The notes beneath the pieces are model-generated. The model was not told the origin of the DNA, did no database searches, and saw only the letters and a program-made list of their open reading frames with translations. This document shows positions 1,790 through 25,294 of a DNA stretch of 64,000 nt, in pieces. Origin of the DNA: Siccibacter colletis. GTDB taxonomy: Bacteria; Pseudomonadota; Gammaproteobacteria; Enterobacterales; Enterobacteriaceae. The stretch covers positions 1 to 64,000 of the forward strand of contig NZ_JMSQ01000007.1 in assembly GCF_000696575.1 (NCBI RefSeq), given 5' to 3'. The translations under genes were made by a program, and so were the position numbers. How positions within the stretch are numbered: position 1 is the first letter of the stretch; the number at the start of each line of letters is the position of its first letter.

Positions 1790-3388
1790 ATGTCGCAACA
1801 GGCTACAACCACTGAGTTAAGCTTCACCCAGCGTTTTGGCAAGCAGGAGCAGCAGATCCTGACGCCAGACGCTATCGCGTTTCTCACTGAACTGGTGTCA
1901 CGCTTTACGCCGCAGCGCAATACGCTTCTGGCTGCGCGCGTACACCAGCAGGCACAGATTGATGCCGGCACGCTGCCTGATTTTATTTCGGAAACCGCTT
2001 CCATAAGAGAAAGCGCATGGAAAATTCGGGGCATACCGGACGACCTGCTCGATCGCCGCGTTGAGATCACCGGTCCGGTAGAGCGCAAGATGGTGATCAA
2101 TGCGCTGAACGCGAACGTGAAAGTATTTATGGCCGACTTCGAAGACTCGCTGTCGCCGGCGTGGAGCAAACTGATCGAGGGCCAGATCAACCTGCGCGAT
2201 GCCGTGAATGGCACCATCACCTGGACCAATGAAGCCGGTAAAATCTATCAGCTCAAACCCACCCCTGCGGTGCTGGTGTGCCGCGTGCGCGGTCTGCATC
2301 TGCCGGAAAAGCACGTCACCTGGCGTGAGGAACCAATCCCGGGCAGCCTGTTCGATTTTGCGCTCTACTTTTTCCACAACCATCAGCAGCTGCTCGCCAA
2401 AGGCAGCGGCCCCTATTTTTATCTGCCGAAAACCCAGTCCTGGCAGGAGGCCGCCTGGTGGAGCGAAGTATTCAGCTTTACCGAAGATCGCTTTGGCCTG
2501 ACGCGCGGCACAATTAAAGCCACGCTGTTGATTGAAACCCTGCCAGCGGTGTTCCAGATGGACGAAATTCTGCATGCGCTGCGCGACCACATCGTCGGCC
2601 TCAACTGCGGGCGCTGGGATTACATCTTCAGCTATATCAAAACGCTGAAAAATCACGGCGATCGGGTTTTACCAGACCGTCAGGTCGTTACCATGGATAA
2701 ACCTTTCCTGAGCGCCTATTCCCGGCTGCTCATCAAAACCTGTCACCGCCGTGGGGCGTTTGCGATGGGCGGTATGGCGGCGTTCATCCCGAGCAAAGAC
2801 GCGGAGCGTAACAGCTGGGTGCTGAACAAGGTAAAAGCGGATAAATCGCTGGAAGCGCAGAACGGCCACGACGGTACCTGGATTGCGCATCCGGGGCTCG
2901 CCGACACCGCGATGGCGATATTCGACCAGGCGCTGGGCGAACATAAAAATCAGCTGCACGTCACCCGTGAAGAAGACGCCCCGATTACCGCAGCCGAATT
3001 GCTGGCACCGTGCGACGGCGAGCGCAGCGAAGAGGGGATGCGCGCCAATATCCGCGTCGCGGTGCAGTACATCGAAGCCTGGATCTCGGGCAACGGCTGC
3101 GTACCTATCTATGGCCTGATGGAGGACGCGGCCACGGCGGAAATTTCGCGTACCTCGATCTGGCAGTGGATCCATCACCACAAAACCCTGAACGACGGCA
3201 CGCCGGTCACCAACGCGCTGTTCCGCCAGTGGCTGGATGAAGAGATGATGGTGATCCGCGAAGAGCTGGGCGAGCACCGTTTCAGCAACGGTCGCTTCAG
3301 TGAAGCGGCCAGGCTGATGGAGCAGATCACCACCTCCGATACGCTGATCGACTTCCTCACCCTGCCGGGCTACCGCTGGCTGGCCTGA
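1790..3388 (+). CDS. aceB: malate synthase A
   Basis: 532 aa, collinear with E. coli AceB (…VNALNANVKVFMADFEDS…TLPGYRWLA); RBS ggagga. Confidence 0.97.
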   Translation: MSQQATTTELSFTQRFGKQEQQILTPDAIAFLTELVSRFTPQRNTLLAARVHQQAQIDAGTLPDFISETASIRESAWKIRGIPDDLLDRRVEITGPVERKMVINALNANVKVFMADFEDSLSPAWSKLIEGQINLRDAVNGTITWTNEAGKIYQLKPTPAVLVCRVRGLHLPEKHVTWREEPIPGSLFDFALYFFHNHQQLLAKGSGPYFYLPKTQSWQEAAWWSEVFSFTEDRFGLTRGTIKATLLIETLPAVFQMDEILHALRDHIVGLNCGRWDYIFSYIKTLKNHGDRVLPDRQVVTMDKPFLSAYSRLLIKTCHRRGAFAMGGMAAFIPSKDAERNSWVLNKVKADKSLEAQNGHDGTWIAHPGLADTAMAIFDQALGEHKNQLHVTREEDAPITAAELLAPCDGERSEEGMRANIRVAVQYIEAWISGNGCVPIYGLMEDAATAEISRTSIWQWIHHHKTLNDGTPVTNALFRQWLDEEMMVIREELGEHRFSNGRFSEAARLMEQITTSDTLIDFLTLPGYRWLA

Positions 3389-17588: not shown

Positions 17589-18536
17589 TCAGGCGCGGCG
17601 CTTTTTAAGCGCGCGGGCGCGGTTATCGTTAATCGGTTTGCCGGACCAGTAGCCCGCCAGCAGCGAACCAGAGAGGTTATGCCAGACCGAGAACAGCGCG
17701 CCGGGCAGGGCGGCGAGCGGGGAGAAGTAGATTTTCCCGAGCGCCGCTGCGAGGCCGGAGTTCTGCATTCCCACTTCGATAGCCAGCGTGCGGCAGGTAG
17801 ACTCGTCGAAACCAAACAGGCGTCCGCCCCAGTATCCGGCCAGCAGGCCGATGGTGTTGTGCAGGATCACCGCCACGATCACCACCAGGCCTACAGAGGC
17901 GATATGCGCTGCCGAGCCGGCCACGACCGCACTGATGATGGCGAGGATACAGACCATCGAGAACGCGGGTAGGTACGGCTCCACGGCTCTCACCACGCGC
18001 GGGAACAGGTGATGGATCACCAGCCCCAGCGCAATCGGGATCACCACAATCTGCAGAATGCTGAGCAGCATCCCCATCACGTCCACCTGGATATGCGCAT
18101 CCACATACAGACGGGTCAGCAGCGGTGTGGCGATGACGCCCACCAGGGTGGAGACCGACGAGATGGTGACCGAGAGCGCAACGTCGCCCTTTGCCAGATA
18201 GATCATAACGTTTGATGCGGTGCCGCTGGCGACGCTACCCACCAGCACCATGCCAGCGGAGAGATCCGGCGGCATATCAAACAGCATCGCCAGCAGCCAC
18301 GCGGCGAGCGGCATCACCAGATAGTGTAAAAACGTGCCGGCTGCTACCGGGGCCGGACGCGAGAGCACGCGCTTGAAGTCGTCGAGTTTCAGATGCACGC
18401 CCATGCCGAACATAATCAGCATCAGCAGCGTGGTGACCCAGGGGCCAACGGGCGTAAAGGTGGCGGGCGTATAATACGCAATTACCGAGAGCAGCAGCGC
18501 CCAGAGCGGGAACAGCCGCGTGAGAGTGGCAAGCAT
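17589..18536 (-). CDS. bile acid:sodium symporter (BASS/SBF) family transporter
   Basis: 315-aa polytopic protein with BASS-family blocks (…[15 protein letters not shown]…SGTASNVM…[13 protein letters not shown]…); not present at this position in E. coli. Confidence 0.85.
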
Positions 18537-18611
18537 GATATTTTCCTTGCGGTCGGAAGAGTGTCGTTGTGTTTTCCCGTGCCGCTGTAGCCGCGGCGTG
18601 CGTTTACGCTC

Positions 18612-18644
18612 CGGGAATGAAAAAGGCCGGGTGAACGCCCGGCC
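18612..18644 (-). terminator. rtcR intrinsic terminator
   Basis: ggccgggt-gaac-gcccggcc; on the minus strand it is followed by tttttcatt. Confidence 0.6.
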
Positions 18645-18686
18645 AGAGGTATTGTTTATCGTGCTAAGGATTTTTATTCAAATAAA

Positions 18687-20294
18687 TTATGATGAAATGC
18701 CTTCATCGTTGGCGCGGATCTGCTCCCAGCTGAGATCGAAGCGGGCAAGGTATTTCCGCAGCCGATCGGCATCGTTAGGGTTCTGCTTCTTCTGACGCGA
18801 TACCGCAAACAGGGTGCGACCCGCTTCCGACAGCGAGGCGCTGCGGCGACACACCTCAATTACCGTTTCCAGCTGGCGCTGGTCAAAAAGATCGATCTCG
18901 TCCTGCACCGGCAGCGACGCCGGAGCGGGATTGCTGCTGCGCCAGTTCTGCCGCAGGCGTGCCGTCTCCTCCTCCACCAGACCCAGCGTAATGCGCCCCT
19001 GCTCGGCAAGCGTTGCCATACGCGCGACCGAGGCGCTCAGCTCGCGAAAGTTGCCGCGCCAGGCTGCCTGAGGCGAGCAGGCGAAGGCCAGATACGCTGC
19101 CTTCGCCTCTTTATCGAAGCGTACCTGCGTCTGTTGCTGCCCGGCAAAGCGCTGCAGCTCATATTCCACGTTGGGGGGAATGTCCTCCCGGCGCTGCGCG
19201 AGGCCTGGCAGGGCAAAGGTCCACATGTTGATGCGGGCATAGAGATCTTCACGAAAACGGCCCTCCGCTACCCACTGCGGCATATCCCGGTGGGTGCCGG
19301 CGATCAGCTGGAAGTCGCTGCGCACCTCGTTATCCGCGCCGAACGGCAGGAAGGTTTTCTCTTCGATGGCCTTGAGCAGCATCGCCTGTTCGTCGAGGCC
19401 CAGCTCTGCAATCTCATCAAGAAATAACACGCCACCGTCCGCTTCGCGCAGCAGACCCGCCCGCGCCTGCAACGCGCCGGTAAACGCACCTTTGACATGG
19501 CCGAACAGGGTCGACATGGCGTTATCCCCACGCAGCGTCGCGCAGTTCACTGCCACCAGCCGGCCCTGTACTTGATGGCGCGACTGCCGCAGCTGGAAGA
19601 TGCGCTGCGCCAGGAACGATTTTCCGGCCCCGGTCGGCCCGGTAAGCAGGATCGGGGCGGTTGAACGCAGGGCCACGCGTTCGATCTGGTCAATCAGACG
19701 GTTAAAGGTGGCATTGCGGGTGTCGATGCCGGCCTTGAGGAAAGAGACCGACTGCTGCTGTTCGCGCTGGAAGCGGCTGGTGAGCGTGGTGTAGCGGCTC
19801 AGATCGAGATCGATAACCGAGTAGGTTCCGGCTGCGGTCAGGGCGGCATCGGTGACATCGCGATGCGCCGGGCTGGTCTGCACCAGGCCCGCGGGCAGGT
19901 AGCGGGCTTCGGTCAGCAGGAACCAGCAGATCTGCGCGACGTGGGTGCCGGTAGTGATGTGGACCAGATACTCCTCGCGTTCGGTATCGAACGGGTAGCG
20001 GGTGGCAAAGTCGAGCAGCGCGGCGTACACCTCCTCGAAATCCCAGGGATCGTTGAGCGTCACGGTGTGCGGGCGAACCTCGGTATGCGGCGAGGCGAGG
20101 GCGATATCTTCCACCACCCGCTGCGCCAGCACGGCGTCACGCGGCTGGCACAGCAGCTCAAACCGATCCACAGGCAGATCGGGATGCAGGCACAGCCCGA
20201 CCGTCGGTCGCCACTTGTTCCAGCGGTTGGCGCGTTTTCCGCGCTTGTCCAGCACGGTACCCAGCATGCCAATCACCACCCGACGCTTTTTCAT
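18687..20294 (-). CDS. rtcR: sigma54-dependent RNA-repair operon activator RtcR (CARF-like N-terminal domain plus AAA+ domain)
   Basis: 535 aa, collinear with E. coli RtcR (…WRPT…NPWDFEEVYA…HITTGTHVAQICWFLL…GPTGAGKSF…GAFTGA…RYLARFDL.WE…). Confidence 0.93.
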   Translation of the reverse strand: MKKRRVVIGMLGTVLDKRGKRANRWNKWRPTVGLCLHPDLPVDRFELLCQPRDAVLAQRVVEDIALASPHTEVRPHTVTLNDPWDFEEVYAALLDFATRYPFDTEREEYLVHITTGTHVAQICWFLLTEARYLPAGLVQTSPAHRDVTDAALTAAGTYSVIDLDLSRYTTLTSRFQREQQQSVSFLKAGIDTRNATFNRLIDQIERVALRSTAPILLTGPTGAGKSFLAQRIFQLRQSRHQVQGRLVAVNCATLRGDNAMSTLFGHVKGAFTGALQARAGLLREADGGVLFLDEIAELGLDEQAMLLKAIEEKTFLPFGADNEVRSDFQLIAGTHRDMPQWVAEGRFREDLYARINMWTFALPGLAQRREDIPPNVEYELQRFAGQQQTQVRFDKEAKAAYLAFACSPQAAWRGNFRELSASVARMATLAEQGRITLGLVEEETARLRQNWRSSNPAPASLPVQDEIDLFDQRQLETVIEVCRRSASLSEAGRTLFAVSRQKKQNPNDADRLRKYLARFDLSWEQIRANDEGISS

Positions 20295-20430
20295 TGATTA
20301 TCCTTAAAGATAAAAATCGATACCAAAAGATAAATAGTAGCGCTTTCCTGCCCGGGGGTCCTGAAAAGACAGAAAAATTAAATTGATAAATTTCATATGG
20401 TTATGAATTTATTTTCGCCTTAAATGAAAC

Positions 20431-20446
20431 TGGCACGCTTCTGGCA
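20431..20446 (+). promoter_or_regulatory. sigma54 (-24/-12) promoter TGGCACGCTTCTGGCA driving the rtcB operon
   Basis: GG and GC elements at the canonical spacing, 137 nt from the divergent rtcR start; an AT-rich spacer (20300-20430) is consistent with an enhancer/IHF region. Confidence 0.7.
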
Positions 20447-20456
20447 AAGATAACCT

Positions 20457-20600
20457 CGTCAGCACGCTGGAATCGCAGGGAATCATCATCCCGCCGGCGC
20501 ACCGGGAACAGTAACAGGTTATCCACGGGGCGTTCCGCCAGCAGCGAGACACCGGCAAAACATCGGTTTATCAGGTTCGAATCCTGAATTTGCATTCTCC
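20457..20600 (+). ncRNA. candidate structured leader / tRNA-like (YrlA-type) RNA element
   Basis: perfect T-arm mimic tcagg-TTCGAAT-cctga at 20571-20587 followed by the 7-nt strand atttgca; lies in the 310-nt untranslated stretch between the sigma54 promoter and the first CDS; boundaries are approximate. Confidence 0.35.
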
Positions 20601-20768
20601 TCCAGAGAACTTAAACAGCAGTACCCGGCGGTTGGGTTGGTAACGACCGCCCAGAGCTGACGCCGGTAACGGCGCCGGGCGGCAGGCAGAAAAGACCAGA
20701 GCAGCGGTCACTTCCCCCTCCCGCTTCGCGCCTGCATTCGCGCCAGCCACAACATTAAGGAAAGCAAA

Positions 20769-21914
20769 ATGAATAACACATTGACGATTCGTAAAGGCCA
20801 GCTGGGTTTACTGGCAAAACAGGGCGACTTTTATCAGATTCTGGAAGCGGGCGAGCATCGCCTGCCGTGGTTTAACAAACCGGACGTGGTGGTGATCGAC
20901 GTAAACAGCGGCGACGTAGCCCCCGAACTGGCTGACTACCTGCGCCGGTTTCAGCCTGCATGGGTAGAGAAATACTGCCTGGTGGTCGATACCGCCGATA
21001 ACGAAACGGCGGCGATCTGGCGCGACAACGTGCTGGTGGAGATCGTCCCTCCTGGCGCACGGCGTCTGTTCTGGCGCGACGGCGACAGCCTGCGGGCCGT
21101 GCATCTGGATACCCGTGAGGTGCAGGTGCCGGCAGAGATCGTGACTGCCGTTCTGCAACCGCGTGGCCGCGATGCGGCGGTGAAGGGGCGCGAGGCGATC
21201 CTCATCGTTAACGTACCGGCGTGGCACGTTGGGGTGCTGAAAATTGATGGCGTCACGCAGCCGCTGCTGTCGCCGGGGTTAAGCGCGTACTGGAAAATCA
21301 ATCATCTGGTGGAAGCGGAAGCGGTGGATACCCGCCTGCAGGCGCTGGAGGTTTCCGGTCAGGAGATCCTGACTAAAGATAAGGTGAATCTGCGTATTAA
21401 CCTCGGTGCCAACTGGCGCTACGGCGACGTGTTACAGGCATACAGCCAGCTGGCTAAGCCGCTTGAGCACCTCTATCGCGAGCTGCAGTTTGCCCTGCGT
21501 GAAGCGGTGGGTACCCGCACGCTGGATGAGCTGCTGGAAAATAAGCAGGTTATCGACGAGGTGGTGAGCGCCCAGGTAGTAACGCGCATGGCACCGTTTG
21601 GCATTGAGATTGCCTCCATTGGGGTGAAGGATATTGTGCTGCCGGGCGAGATGAAAACCATCCTCTCGCGGCTGGTTGAGGCGGAGAAACTGGCCCAGGC
21701 TAACGTTATTCGCCGACGTGAAGAGACCGCTGCGACCCGCTCGCTGCTGAACACGGCAAAAGTGATGGAGAACAACCCGGTGGCGTTGCGTCTTAAGGAG
21801 ATGGAAACCCTGGAGCGCGTTGCGGAGCGCATCGATAAAATTTCGGTCTACGGCGGCCTGGACCAGGTTCTGCACGGCCTCGTGAACATTAAAGGAAACA
21901 TCCATGCAGCATAA
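20769..21914 (+). CDS. SPFH/band-7 (slipin-family) domain protein without an N-terminal TM anchor
   Basis: 381 aa; stomatin/prohibitin-like core (…KDKVNLRINLGANWRY…IEIASIGVKDIVLPGEMKTILSRLVEAEKLAQANVIRRREETAATRSL…); RBS aagga; its 3' end overlaps rtcB by 11 nt. Confidence 0.85.
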   Translation: MNNTLTIRKGQLGLLAKQGDFYQILEAGEHRLPWFNKPDVVVIDVNSGDVAPELADYLRRFQPAWVEKYCLVVDTADNETAAIWRDNVLVEIVPPGARRLFWRDGDSLRAVHLDTREVQVPAEIVTAVLQPRGRDAAVKGREAILIVNVPAWHVGVLKIDGVTQPLLSPGLSAYWKINHLVEAEAVDTRLQALEVSGQEILTKDKVNLRINLGANWRYGDVLQAYSQLAKPLEHLYRELQFALREAVGTRTLDELLENKQVIDEVVSAQVVTRMAPFGIEIASIGVKDIVLPGEMKTILSRLVEAEKLAQANVIRRREETAATRSLLNTAKVMENNPVALRLKEMETLERVAERIDKISVYGGLDQVLHGLVNIKGNIHAA

Positions 21915-23130
21915 CGACTATCAACTGATGGCGCGGGAGAACACCGCGCCGGTAAAAATGTGGACGCACGGCGTGCCGGTGGAGCCTGAAGCGCGCGAGC
22001 AGCTGCTGAAAACCGCACAGATGCCGTTTATTTTCAGACACCTGGCCGTGATGCCGGATGTGCACCTGGGGAAAGGCTCCACCATTGGCAGCGTGATCCC
22101 GACCAAAGGGGCGATTATTCCGGCGGCAGTGGGTGTGGATATCGGCTGCGGGATGATCGCGGTGCGCACCTCGCTGACGGCAGGGGATCTGCCGGATAAC
22201 CTGAGCGGGCTGCGCAGCGCCATTGAGCAGGCCGTGCCGCACGGGCGCACCGGCTCCCGCACCCAGCGCGATAAAGGCGCATGGGCGCGTCCGCCGCAGG
22301 AGGTGGATAGCCACTGGGCGCAGCTGGCTCCGCGCTTTAAGCGCCTGACGGATAAATACCCGCAGCTGCTGAAAACCAACAACTATCAGCATCTGGGTAC
22401 GCTGGGAACCGGGAATCACTTCATCGAGATCTGTCTCGACGAACAGCAGCGGGTATGGGTGATGCTGCACAGCGGCTCGCGCGGCGTGGGCAACGCCATC
22501 GGCACGCTGTTCATCAGCCTCGCGCAGAAGGACATGCAACGCCATATCGCAACGCTGCCCGACCGCGACCTCGCTTATTTTGCAGAGGGCAGCAAACACT
22601 ATGCGGATTACATCGAGGCAGTGGAGTGGGCGCAGGATTATGCCCGCCATAACCGGGAAGTGATGATGTCGCGCGTGCTGTCGGCGCTCTCCTCGGCGAT
22701 CGCGAAGCCGTTTATGACTCAGCAGGAAGCGGTTAACTGCCATCACAACTATGTGCAGAAAGAGCAGCACTTTGGTGAAGAGGTGCTGGTGACGCGTAAA
22801 GGCGCGGTGTCGGCGCAGAAAGGGCAGATGGGCATCATCCCCGGTTCGATGGGAGCGAAAAGTTTCATTGTGCGCGGGCTGGGCAATGAAGAGAGCTTCT
22901 GCTCCTGTAGCCACGGTGCCGGGCGCGCCATGAGCCGGACCGCTGCGAAAAAGCGCTATACCGTTGAGGATCAGATCCGCGCCACCGCGCACGTCGAGTG
23001 CCGTAAGGACAGCGAGGTGATCGACGAGATCCCGATGGCGTATAAAGATATTGATGCGGTGATGACCGCTCAGGCTTCGCTGGTGGAAGTGGTGCATACG
23101 CTGCGCCAGGTGGTCTGCGTAAAAGGATAA
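21904..23130 (+). CDS. rtcB: RNA-splicing ligase RtcB (3'-phosphate/5'-OH RNA ligase)
   Basis: 408 aa, roughly 80% identical to E. coli RtcB by eye (…PFIF.H.AVMPDVHLGKGSTIGSVIPTKGAIIPAAVGVDIGCGM…NCHHNYVQKEQHFGEE…CSHGAGR…). Confidence 0.97.
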   Translation: MQHNDYQLMARENTAPVKMWTHGVPVEPEAREQLLKTAQMPFIFRHLAVMPDVHLGKGSTIGSVIPTKGAIIPAAVGVDIGCGMIAVRTSLTAGDLPDNLSGLRSAIEQAVPHGRTGSRTQRDKGAWARPPQEVDSHWAQLAPRFKRLTDKYPQLLKTNNYQHLGTLGTGNHFIEICLDEQQRVWVMLHSGSRGVGNAIGTLFISLAQKDMQRHIATLPDRDLAYFAEGSKHYADYIEAVEWAQDYARHNREVMMSRVLSALSSAIAKPFMTQQEAVNCHHNYVQKEQHFGEEVLVTRKGAVSAQKGQMGIIPGSMGAKSFIVRGLGNEESFCSCSHGAGRAMSRTAAKKRYTVEDQIRATAHVECRKDSEVIDEIPMAYKDIDAVMTAQASLVEVVHTLRQVVCVKG

Positions 23131-23134
23131 GACA

Positions 23135-23920
23135 ATGAACAACAACGGAGTGAGCACTGCCATGCGCGAGCGCGTGCGGCAGGTGCTGAAAGAAGTGGAG
23201 CAGCGCGATAACGTGCGTGTGCTGTATGCCTGCGAGTCGGGCAGCCGGGGCTGGGGGTTCGCTTCCCCGGACAGCGATTATGATGTGCGTTTCCTCTACG
23301 TTCATCCCCCGGAATGGTATCTGCGCGTCGATCCGCCGCGGGATGTGATCGAGCTGCCCATTGATGAGGTGCTGGACGTGTCGGGCTGGGAGTGGCGCAA
23401 AGCGCTGGGTCTGCTCAAGCGCGCCAACCCGACGCTCATCGAGTGGCTGGATTCGCCGGTGGTCTATCAGCAGGATGACCACGCGCTGGCAGCGCTACGG
23501 GCGCAGGTGCCGGCGTGGTTCTCCGCCGAGCGGGCGCGCTGGCACTACTATTCAATGGCGCGCAAAAACTTTCACGGCTATTTGCAGGGCGACACAGTGC
23601 GGCTGAAAAAGTATTTCTACGTGCTGCGTCCGTTGCTGGCGGTGCGCTGGATCGAAGCCGGGAAGGGAATGCCGCCGATGCGCTTTGCGCAGCTGCTGGA
23701 GGGGACGGTGGAGGATGCGCTGCTGCGCCGGGAGATCGACGAGCTGCTCGCCATCAAACAGCGGGCCGGTGAAGCGGAATATGGGGCAATGCGCCCGCAC
23801 ATCCACGCGTTTATCCTGCAGGAACTGGCGCGAGGGGAAACGCCGCCCGAACTGCCCGGCAGCAATAACGCCGACCCGGCGCTGCTCGACGACTTACTGT
23901 TCCGCACGGTGATGGCCTGA
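23135..23920 (+). CDS. Pol-beta-superfamily nucleotidyltransferase (RtcB-associated, occupies the rtcA position)
   Basis: 261 aa; GS-x9-DxD motif (ESGSRGWGFASPDSDYDVRFLY); starts 4 nt after the rtcB stop with an agga RBS. Confidence 0.85.
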   Translation: MNNNGVSTAMRERVRQVLKEVEQRDNVRVLYACESGSRGWGFASPDSDYDVRFLYVHPPEWYLRVDPPRDVIELPIDEVLDVSGWEWRKALGLLKRANPTLIEWLDSPVVYQQDDHALAALRAQVPAWFSAERARWHYYSMARKNFHGYLQGDTVRLKKYFYVLRPLLAVRWIEAGKGMPPMRFAQLLEGTVEDALLRREIDELLAIKQRAGEAEYGAMRPHIHAFILQELARGETPPELPGSNNADPALLDDLLFRTVMA

Positions 23921-23941
23921 CGTTGTCAGGCCATTTTTTTA
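23914..23941. terminator. bidirectional intrinsic terminator between the NTase gene and lysC
   Basis: ggcctgac-gtt-gtcaggcc followed by attttttt; the NTase stop codon lies within the stem. Confidence 0.7.
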
Positions 23942-25294
23942 TCACTCGAACAGGTTGTGATGCAGCTTCTGCACCACCTGCTCGGCGTCATTGCCCGGCA
24001 CCAGGAAGCAGAGGTTGTAGCTGGAAGCACCGTAGCAAATCATGCGAATGTTGAACGGCTCCAGCACGCCAAACACCTCTTTGCCGACGCCGCAGGCTTT
24101 GGAAAGGTTGTTACCGATCAGTGCCACCAGCGCCAGATTCTCTTCCACCTCCACGCGGCACAGGGAAGAAAGCTCAGTCAGTAAGCCCTGGGTCAGCAAC
24201 GTATCGCCGGTGGAAGTAGAGCCGGTGGTATCGAGGGTCAGGGCAACGCTCACTTCCGACGTGGTAATCAGATCCACCGAGATATTGTGGCGCGCCAGGA
24301 TGCTGAACACTTCGGCGAGGAAACCGCGCGAGTGCAGCATGTTGAGACTGTGCAGGGTAAGCAGCGTCTGCTTGCGGCGCATCGCCAGCGCGCGGAACAG
24401 CGGCGGATTGGTGGTTTTGTTACACACCAGCGTGCCGCCCGCCGCCGGATCTTTGCTGGAACCGACGAACACCGGAATATCGCTGCGCACCGCAGGCAGC
24501 AGCGTTGCCGGATGCAGCACTTTCGCGCCGAAGGTCGCCATCTCGGCCGCTTCTTCAAAGGCGATCTCATCGATGCGCTTCGCTGCCGGCACTACGCGCG
24601 GGTCGGTGGTGTAGATGCCTGGTACGTCGGTCCAGATATCCACGCGCGCTGCCTTCAACGCTTCACCGAGCAGCGCTGCGGTGTAATCGCTGCCGCCACG
24701 ACCCAGCGTGGTGGTGCGGCCTTTACCTTCGCTGCCGATAAAACCCTGGGTGATCACCAGGCCTTCGCGAATGCGCGGCTGCAGCTGCTGAACGCAGAGC
24801 TCGGCCAGGGCGGTAACGTCCGGCTCGGCGCGGCCAAAGCGGTCGCTGGTGCGCATCACCTTGCGCACGTCAAACCACTGCGCCTCCACCGCGCGTTCGC
24901 GCAGCACTTCGACAAACAGCAGGGTGGACATCAGTTCGCCGTGGCTTACCAGCTCGTCAGTGAGGGCAGTGGAGGTCGCGAGCGACGCCGCTTCGGACAG
25001 GGTGGCGATGTTCTCCAGCAGACGATCGATTTCGTCGCGGATAACGGTCGGGTTTTGCAGGCGTTCGAGGATGTCATACTGGATTTTGCGGATCGCATCG
25101 AGCTTGACGAAGCGCTCGGTCGCTTCCGGACCTTCTGCCAGCGCCACCAGCAAATTAGTGATGCCCGCCGAGGCGGAAAGCACCACCAGACGCACGGTAT
25201 CATCGGAAAGGACCACGTCGGCGCTGCGGTTCATCGCGTCGAAATCGGCCACACTGGTGCCGCCAAATTTGGCGACAACAAAAGCATTTGTCAT
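23942..25294 (-). CDS. lysC: lysine-sensitive aspartokinase III
   Basis: 450 aa, collinear with E. coli LysC (…KFGGTSVADFDAMNRSAD.VLSD..VRLVVLSASAGITN…). Confidence 0.97.
   Translation of the reverse strand: MTNAFVVAKFGGTSVADFDAMNRSADVVLSDDTVRLVVLSASAGITNLLVALAEGPEATERFVKLDAIRKIQYDILERLQNPTVIRDEIDRLLENIATLSEAASLATSTALTDELVSHGELMSTLLFVEVLRERAVEAQWFDVRKVMRTSDRFGRAEPDVTALAELCVQQLQPRIREGLVITQGFIGSEGKGRTTTLGRGGSDYTAALLGEALKAARVDIWTDVPGIYTTDPRVVPAAKRIDEIAFEEAAEMATFGAKVLHPATLLPAVRSDIPVFVGSSKDPAAGGTLVCNKTTNPPLFRALAMRRKQTLLTLHSLNMLHSRGFLAEVFSILARHNISVDLITTSEVSVALTLDTTGSTSTGDTLLTQGLLTELSSLCRVEVEENLALVALIGNNLSKACGVGKEVFGVLEPFNIRMICYGASSYNLCFLVPGNDAEQVVQKLHHNLFE

Follow-up and report, generated by a model that had tools for sequence, protein, structure and literature searches.

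What is a tRNA T-arm doing in the untranslated leader of an RNA-repair operon? Rtc RNA-repair operons are induced by ribotoxins and ribosome-targeting antibiotics, and the one considered here lies in a 64-kb stretch of Siccibacter colletis DNA (the window), whose genes were assigned by Pfam and whose slipin protein is 100% identical to that of Siccibacter colletis. The locus reads rtcR, sigma54 promoter, 312-nt leader, slipin (Band-7), rtcB, and rlaP:

18687..20294, minus strand: rtcR, divergent, a sigma54 activator with an RtcR/CARF N-terminal domain (Pfam RtcR 3.5e-83, Sigma54_activat 4.5e-49)
20431..20446, plus strand: sigma54 promoter TGGCACGCTTCTGGCA (TGGCAC-N5-TGGCA), read directly, with an equivalent motif at the equivalent place in homologous loci
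20457..20768, plus strand: untranslated, multi-domain structured leader of 312 nt (RNAalifold and pairing statistics)
20757..20761, plus strand: AAGGA, ribosome-binding site of the slipin gene, outside the conserved helices
20769..21914, plus strand: slipin/SPFH (Band-7), the partner gene of the RNA element, with its ATG at 20769 (Pfam Band_7 5.1e-26)
21904..23130, plus strand: rtcB RNA ligase (Pfam RtcB 2.1e-132)
23135..23920, plus strand: rlaP (PF10127), RNA 3'-end nucleotidyltransferase (Pfam RlaP 3.2e-93)

Judging from the position of the promoter, transcription should start at about 20457. No plus-strand open reading frame of at least 50 amino acids lies within the leader, in agreement with a preliminary description of this DNA, which had read a sigma54 promoter followed by an untranslated leader of about 310 nt. 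The same description had recognized an RNA-repair setting with RtcR, RtcB, and a nucleotidyltransferase, borne out by the Pfam assignments, and had remarked on the lack of an rsr gene; indeed, none of the six genes around the element encodes a Ro (TROVE) domain according to Pfam. The slipin gene starts 176 nt 3' of the tRNA-like element; rtcB and rlaP come next, and rtcR points the other way. A recent preprint (10.64898/2025.12.29.696909) shows that RlaP extends damaged RNAs at their 3'-OH by one or two nucleotides.

The tRNA-like element occupies a short segment of the leader:

20555..20559, plus strand: 5' strand GCAAA of an acceptor-like helix, pairing with TTTGC at 20589-20593 and covarying
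20560..20570, plus strand: linker with a clade-invariant CGGTT (20564-20568; TCGGTT in the window), defined from alignment columns
20571..20587, plus strand: T-arm TCAGG/TTCGAAT/CCTGA, supported by direct reading, conservation, and covariation
20589..20593, plus strand: 3' strand TTTGC of the acceptor-like helix, with no CCA encoded behind it

Direct reading agrees with the hairpin as originally reported: a 5-bp stem made of TCAGG (20571-20575) and CCTGA (20583-20587) encloses the loop TTCGAAT (20576-20582), GGTTCGAATCC spans 20574-20584, and ATTTGCA (20588-20594) follows directly on the 3' side. Only five of the seven nucleotides of the latter strand, TTTGC, find a partner in GCAAA, and one unpaired A separates the T stem from the 3' strand of the acceptor-like helix. 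With its 5-bp stem and 7-nt TTCRANY loop, both under selection, the hairpin is a canonical T-arm; having no anticodon arm, the element lies outside the canonical decoding tRNAs, which are defined by a cloverleaf and a 7-nt anticodon loop. The window copy consists of a 5-bp covarying acceptor-like helix, the TCGGTT linker, and the T-arm, with neither D arm nor anticodon arm. From its sequence, the CGGTT linker is a possible mimic of the GG of a D-loop, and an analogous GGT(G) is found in the linkers of beta-proteobacterial minihelices.

Programs that search for known RNAs pass over this element. ARAGORN finds 0 tRNA or tmRNA genes in the window. The expectation that the Y_RNA, YrlA, or tRNA (RF00005) models of Rfam would recognize it was disappointed, with no match even at E<=10, either in positions 18000-25000 or in the leader alone, and Rfam searches of the region and of the leader alone at permissive thresholds returned chance matches only. 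A sequence within one mismatch of GGTTCGAATCC is expected 1.26 times in the shuffled window and is found once, which is not beyond chance by itself. The significance of the motif comes from comparison across loci, not from the window alone.

Starting from an alignment of ten slipins, we collected 80 loci with a single genome for each species; they represent Enterobacteriaceae, Morganellaceae, Orbaceae, Pseudomonas, Burkholderia, Rhodocyclales, and other Burkholderiales. The arrangement around the Band-7 gene in these loci is that of the window, and a GTTCRANNC T-loop is present upstream of slipin in 78 of the 80, spanning Enterobacterales, Pseudomonadales, Burkholderiales, and Rhodocyclales; the two loci without it belong to Providencia (L015) and P. 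entomophila (L078). The T stem varies by compensatory changes (TCAGG/CCTGA, CCAGG/CCTGG, GCAGG/CCTGC, GCGGG/CCCGC, GTAGG/CCTAC, AAGGG/CCCTT, and TTGGG/CCCAA) while the loop TTCGANT stays nearly invariant. GGTTCGAWTCC is nearly unchanged in 15 Enterobacteriaceae and in more than 20 enterobacterial species, and the flanking leader diverges. In every case the element sits in the 5' leader immediately before slipin and in sense orientation; Enterobacterales have one copy, and most Pseudomonas and beta-proteobacterial loci have two, about 70 to 75 nt apart. The T-arm mimic that was first noticed from one sequence is, by this evidence, genuine and selected. Its position between promoter and gene is constant across four orders, and on this ground we rejected the idea that an integrated element had used it, as a tRNA fragment, for attachment. 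No match to the promoter and leader came up when 5,426 complete Escherichia coli genomes were searched with BLASTN.

Does the pairing extend beyond the T stem? For a 7-bp acceptor stem across all enteric elements, a permutation test was not significant (4.8 to 5.0 matched versus 4.8 mismatched), so closer relatives were fetched, adding Cronobacter and three relatives from public sequencing-run and metagenome assemblies. Within the clade of the window, a 5-bp acceptor-like helix covaries at two positions, reading GAAAA/TTTTC in Cronobacter and GCGAA/TTCGC in Franconibacter, Superficieibacter, and Mangrovibacter, and the 7-bp stem was dropped in its favor. The acceptor-like and T helices together pair in 97% of cells in this clade, and 4 of the 10 pairs change on both sides; none of 500 shuffles reaches 97%, and slid controls pair in 20 to 54% of cells. 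Covariation in orthologous loci, named from the start as a check on the element, is found in both the T stem and the acceptor-like helix, and the compensatory substitutions in the two indicate purifying selection on structure. A different form occurs in the Citrobacter/Klebsiella/Enterobacter/Phytobacter clade, in which a deletion of about 15 nt has removed the 5' strand and the linker and the T stem has 3 to 4 bp, yet GGTTCGATTCC is kept despite the deletion. In the Citrobacter clade, the strand 3' of the T-arm finds its partner on the downstream side instead of the upstream side. The form in the Citrobacter/Klebsiella/Enterobacter clade looks like either decay or a role that needs only the T-loop.

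Outside the enteric bacteria, the same position is occupied by more complete molecules. Both ARAGORN and Rfam RF00005 place tRNA-like genes exactly at the T-loop positions in Pseudomonas, Burkholderiales, and Rhodocyclales, and neither makes a call in the loci of Enterobacteriaceae or Morganellaceae. The downstream one of these non-enteric elements is a full cloverleaf with canonical D-arm (TAGCTCAGTCGGGTAGAGCA) and T-arm. Among 43 distinct "anticodon" arms, however, 20 have 4-nt loops (GAAA, GCAA, TTCG, and similar), a 7-nt loop is present in only 9, and 3 combine such a loop with U33 and R37. Because these arms mostly end in tetraloops, the family cannot decode; the anticodons called by ARAGORN also vary between close relatives. 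Pseudomonas has another cloverleaf as its upstream element, and beta-proteobacteria have a minihelix there, composed of a 7-bp acceptor stem, a 12- to 28-nt linker, and a T-arm; the linker often contains GGT(G), and in some copies also a small tetraloop hairpin. The acceptor stem of the minihelix is supported by permutation, with a matched mean of 6.13 versus 5.14 mismatched that none of 5,000 permutations reaches, and of 40 distinct minihelix copies 12 are followed by an encoded N-CCA, versus about 1 in 64 expected by chance. The non-enteric elements are tandemly abutted in the manner of tRNA precursors.

Are the enteric hairpin and these fuller elements homologous? MAFFT misaligned 5' acceptor strands with linkers of unequal length, and a length-homogeneous seed with iterative covariance-model search was used instead. 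Two models were trained without enteric sequences, R1 from 7 beta-proteobacterial minihelices and R2 from 23 non-enteric hits. R1 has a single match in the 64-kb window, at 20554-20595, full length and in the predicted register, but with only 13.6 bits (E=1.7). R2 recovers the element in every enteric locus, each time where it is expected, with E-values of 0.003 in L084 and 0.014 in L085 (two close relatives, both full length), 0.15 in Mangrovibacter, 0.43 in Franconibacter, 0.57 in Proteus, and 1.1 in Cronobacter; in the window its one match, again at this element, reaches 14.9 bits (E=6.6) and covers the T-arm only. The window copy by itself is sub-threshold for the minihelix models, and its homology to the minihelix and cloverleaf elements of other lineages is supported by position and by a chain of intermediates.

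The remainder of the leader is also structured. Folded as a single sequence, the whole leader is unremarkable (z = -1.3). RNAalifold on 15 Enterobacteriaceae leaders gives 48 pairs, 26 of them with compensatory changes, and 96.7% of cells pair versus 38 to 54% in slid controls, a value reached by 0 of 500 shuffles. Four further domains can be delineated around the tRNA-like element:

20466..20542, plus strand: Module A, a 5' three-way junction supported by covariation, with helices P1 (20466-70/20538-42), P2 (20475-81/20489-94), and P3 (20495-507/20522-37, with a TT bulge)
20595..20609, plus strand: small hairpin TTCTC-CTCCA-GAGAA following the tRNA-like element
20616..20659, plus strand: hairpin M, with core GGCGGT (20627-32)/ACCGCC (20646-51) and the conserved GCAGTACCCGGCGG before it
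20658..20745, plus strand: Module C, a long irregular hairpin with conserved GGCA(A/G)AA and TTCCCC and helices 20658-67/20736-45, 20671-75/20728-32, and 20679-90/20713-24

The core of Module A, CCGGYGC ... GYRTKCCGCC together with the preceding GGGG/CCCC hairpin, aligns in 35 sequences from four orders with compensatory changes in 13 of 14 pairs, and lies behind the sigma54 promoter in all loci with a recognizable one; it also occurs in several loci in which no such promoter could be recognized. The small hairpin keeps its position in relatives with different sequences (TCACC/GGTGA, TTCATT/AATGAA, and CTGCC/GGCAG). Hairpin M recurs with covarying stems in single-sequence folds of 18 relatives, and its motif is conserved as far as Burkholderia and Dechloromonas; in Module C, 13 of 21 pairs change on both sides. 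Motifs of both (GCAGTACCCGCCGG, CCGGTA..., and GGCAAG/GGCAGAAAAG) are visible out to Pseudomonas and Burkholderia, and leaders in other lineages reach about 550 nt. About 12 nt separate the end of Module C from the ribosome-binding site that follows it, and about 23 nt separate it from the ATG. The preliminary description had paired cccggcg at 20624 with a cgccggg placed at 20683. The latter lies in fact at 20673-20679, and in place of a long-range helix between 20624-20630 and 20673-20679 the conserved fold has the local hairpin M and a helix of Module C, in which GGCGC (20671-75) pairs with GCGCC (20728-32). None of the leader domains (Module A, the hairpins, and Module C) has an Rfam match. 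When metagenomes were scanned for a degenerate Module A pattern, the 80 matches were GC-rich and due to chance; none came with a sigma54 promoter, T-loop, or related protein. Neither an Rtc nor a Band-7 motif is mentioned in the main text of Weinberg et al. 2017, and wider searching of the literature was likewise negative.

How should the whole be read? Classically, RNase P and the CCA-adding enzyme require no more of a tRNA substrate than its acceptor/T-arm top half. The 2016 abstract of Burroughs and Aravind is said to describe SPFH/Band-7 modules with "a novel tRNA-like molecule" as cognate RNA. Wang et al. (10.1101/312249), citing Burroughs and Aravind 2016, state in the available text that this b7a-tRNA strongly resembles authentic tRNA; its occurrence beside Band-7 and RtcB was, as of that preprint, a prediction without experimental validation, and the definition of b7a-tRNA used here is second-hand, from their description. 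We found no later reports on b7a-tRNA in a literature search, and the available text of the 2025 RlaP preprint (10.64898/2025.12.29.696909) does not mention it. The hairpin of the window is very probably the T-arm of a b7a-type tRNA-like module, and the preliminary idea of an "orphan" RNA gives way to an element tied to the slipin/Band-7 gene, an association that already bears the name b7a-tRNA.

As a full account, we lean toward a reduced b7a-tRNA that is embedded in a multi-domain leader, is processed, and acts together with slipin. The RtcR/sigma54 promoter would transcribe the reduced b7a-tRNA as one domain of the 312-nt leader ahead of slipin-rtcB-rlaP, and tRNA-processing enzymes would recognize the tRNA-like fold through its acceptor/T-arm, which would release or mark the RNA. 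Processing out of the leader is probable because the element retains the minimal determinant for RNase P and the CCA enzyme and because its relatives abut like tRNA precursors and often encode CCA. The freed RNA might then work with slipin as a cofactor or scaffold through which RtcB and RlaP receive tRNA-shaped substrates or the 3' ends of such substrates. This trans-acting mechanism is put forward tentatively and by analogy: the pairing of slipin with the RNA would parallel that of Y RNA with Ro in Rsr-type Rtc operons, and the likeness to the tRNA-like Y RNA of those operons, drawn in the preliminary description, is upheld by the present comparison. It is also possible, if on the unlikely side, that the leader is a previously undescribed multi-domain structured RNA, conserved from Enterobacterales to Burkholderiales, that either supplies the RNA subunit for a repair particle of slipin, RtcB, and RlaP or works as a riboregulator that senses damage; of its tRNA character, only the elbow/acceptor would matter. 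The roles offered in the preliminary description, as substrate or decoy for RtcB or the nucleotidyltransferase or as ligand of the RtcR CARF domain, stand as hypotheses. A role as decoy for anticodon nucleases is disfavored, since the window copy has no anticodon arm and its full-length relatives mostly carry tetraloops.

The main rival to a processed b7a-tRNA is a cis-acting leader, in which the whole 312-nt RNA controls the stability, processing, or translation of the slipin-rtcB-rlaP mRNA and no free small RNA is made; the T-loop hairpin might serve as a tertiary-contact or protein-binding module, bound by an operon protein or a tRNA-binding factor. The invariable location of the element in the 5' leader, sense and directly upstream of slipin, fits this proposal, as do the conserved covarying structure of every part of the leader, the end of Module C about 12 nt before the ribosome-binding site, the downstream pairing of the strand after the T-arm in the Citrobacter clade, and the finding of no promoter or strong terminator between modules. 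However, the conserved fold contains neither a terminator/antiterminator pair nor a helix that sequesters the ribosome-binding site, and the complete, abutted tRNA-like genes of other lineages, often with CCA, are typical of RNAs processed to discrete molecules. We judge the cis-acting leader unlikely, and the remaining proposals less likely than this one.

Could the mimic instead be a sentinel, cut under RNA-damage stress so that fragments with 2',3'-cyclic phosphates bind the CARF domain of RtcR in positive feedback? In Salmonella, tRNA fragments that end in a cyclic phosphate activate RtcR (Hughes et al. 2020, PMC7790460), and the mimic is made from the RtcR-dependent promoter itself. The usual target of ribotoxins is missing, however, because the window copy has no anticodon loop and its relatives mostly have tetraloops; the tRNA-like YrlA of Salmonella is reported as uncleaved under inducing conditions in the same source; and a transcript that needs prior activation cannot start a response by feedback. 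Together these points make a sentinel improbable. That the enterobacterial hairpin is a functionless remnant of an ancestral tRNA-like gene is very improbable: loss of the D and anticodon arms throughout Enterobacterales, the further deleted 5' strand and shortened T stem of the Citrobacter clade, and the two loci without a T-loop (L015 and L078) would suit decay, but near-invariance of GGTTCGAWTCC across more than 20 enterobacterial species amid diverging flanks, together with the compensatory substitutions in both helices, would not. Scarcely credible, finally, are an orphan YrlA-type Y RNA, as first suggested because YrlA RNAs of Rsr-type Rtc operons have a tRNA-like domain with a T-arm, given no Y_RNA, YrlA, or tRNA match in Rfam at E<=10, no TROVE domain among the operon genes, and a closing helix of 5 bp rather than an evident long Ro-binding stem, and a weak intrinsic terminator or attenuator, as a consensus scan that flags the hairpin plus ATTTGCATTC as terminator-like might imply, given that the loop sequence rather than a U-tract is conserved and that relatives lack any U-run after the hairpin.

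Since an element of this kind had been predicted in 2016, the finding does not open a new category. What appears to go beyond the descriptions we found is the reduced, armless enterobacterial form, which tRNA and Rfam models miss, and the setting of a tRNA-like module between two further conserved RNA domains; the latter are flagged here and go unmentioned in the available text of the recent RlaP biochemistry (10.64898/2025.12.29.696909). Selection keeps the T-arm and the tRNA top half, and the anticodon arms are tetraloop-capped struts that Enterobacterales dispense with, which argues against decoding and anticodon-nuclease decoy roles. Candidate readers of the tRNA elbow and acceptor end would, judging from the retained parts, include RNase P, the CCA-adding enzyme, T-loop modification enzymes, and possibly RlaP. 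The reduced form brings the question into tractable and clinically relevant enterics such as Cronobacter, Citrobacter, Klebsiella oxytoca, Enterobacter, and Proteus, and it bears on the role of the accessory noncoding RNAs of Rtc operons, both Y RNAs and b7a-tRNA.

Among known systems, the window element resembles the acceptor/T-arm minihelix and the tRNA-like domain of tmRNA in that an acceptor helix is stacked on a T-arm and a short GG segment replaces the D arm, and it differs from them in a helix of 5 bp instead of 7 bp, an unpaired A, no CCA, and no tag-coding region. With YrlA, as described for rsr-yrlBA-rtcBA by Chen et al. 2014 (PMC4201824) and Wang et al. 2018, it shares the nature of a nondecoding tRNA mimic in an RtcR-controlled RtcB operon, a T-arm with a canonical T-loop, and a proposed part as the RNA partner of a scaffold protein. 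Its partner would be slipin/Band-7, whereas that of YrlA is Ro60/Rsr; it has no Ro-binding stem and no D-arm, and it sits in the 5' leader, whereas YrlA lies between rsr and rtcB. From b7a-tRNA, the window copy differs in having no D arm, anticodon arm, or encoded CCA, in going undetected by tRNA finders, and in sitting between two further conserved structured domains of which we found no description. Like b7a-tRNA, it stands immediately 5' of a Band-7/SPFH gene, with rtcB and the RlaP gene following under RtcR/sigma54 control, and it carries a canonical T-arm at the very position held by full tRNA-like genes elsewhere.

At its 5' end, the leader upstream of the slipin gene begins with Module A, whose core consists of a GGGG/CCCC hairpin, the strands CCGGYGC ... 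GYRTKCCGCC and a T(K) bulge. Covariation of this core spans Enterobacterales, Pseudomonadales, Burkholderiales and Rhodocyclales, and Module A had no match in Rfam. At the other end of the leader lies Module C, which contains numerous compensatory pairs and ends ~12 nt before the slipin ribosome-binding site and ~23 nt upstream of the ATG; motifs homologous to it are also seen in Pseudomonas.

Window 20466-20542: Module A, a conserved three-way-junction RNA domain directly 3' of the sigma54 start site
Window 20658-20745: Module C, an irregular, extended hairpin in which the segments GGCA(A/G)AA and TTCCCC are conserved

The tRNA-like element between these domains varies among homologous slipin loci. 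Two loci, L015 and L078, retain the sigma54 promoter, Module A and slipin and carry other hairpins in place of the T-loop element, representing its natural "knock-outs."

L015 (Providencia sp.), ~2684-3000: T-loop element absent
L078 (Pseudomonas entomophila), ~2557-3000: T-loop element absent

Within the Citrobacter/Klebsiella/Enterobacter clade, the small hairpin is built from the strand 3' of the T-arm, TTCATT or CTCACC, and its complement farther downstream, AATGAA or GGTGA (L003-L012, L023, and L086; for example, L004 2801-2850). An upstream GATGA or TGAG could be an alternative partner for the same strand, and a structural switch between the two pairings is possible. In beta-proteobacteria, the upstream tRNA-like copy (element 1) is an acceptor and T-arm minihelix (for example, L057 2604-2657 and L080 2607-2657). 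Because N-CCA is encoded directly after it in 12 of 40 distinct copies (loci L024-L080), and this CCA shares bases with the 5' strand of the following tRNA-like element (ACCACTGGATAGCTCAG), the sequences suggest tRNA-style maturation of these minihelices.

In several loci from Burkholderiales MAGs, canonical tRNA genes also occur in arrays 1 to 2 kb upstream of the Module A/tRNA-like/slipin unit, with Asp, Phe, Arg, Pro, His, and Glu among their specificities.

L055 1136-1696: tRNA array
L057 1485-1747: tRNA array
L062 1478-1819: tRNA array
L062 1928-2487: putative HNH-type ORF, with CxxC/DH/N motifs read in sequence only
L074 153-591 and 1825-2031: tRNA arrays

L062 further encodes a sigma54 activator C terminus, an integrase and, after slipin, a 276-aa gene of unknown kind, with no rtcB within 3 kb. 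It is possible that these array-bearing loci are mobile islands of "spare tRNA plus repair."

The slipin itself varies in length, being ~520 aa in some homologues. In the homologue P0006, the N-terminal segment before the SPFH domain (roughly 145 to 180 aa) is tandemly duplicated; loci with a long slipin match (1,527 to 1,566 nt) are L021, L022, L028, L032, L037, L054, and L070.

Downstream of rlaP, a hairpin with a weak isrO-like match in Rfam is probably the operon terminator.

Window 23905-23937: perfect GC-rich hairpin with TTTT directly after it, in the interval that separates rlaP from its convergent neighbour
Window 23942-25294: aspartokinase-like gene, convergent to rlaP

Compared with the rtcB-rlaP-rtcA operons of Pseudomonas (RlaP preprint, 10.64898/2025.12.29.696909), the operon in the window lacks rtcA.
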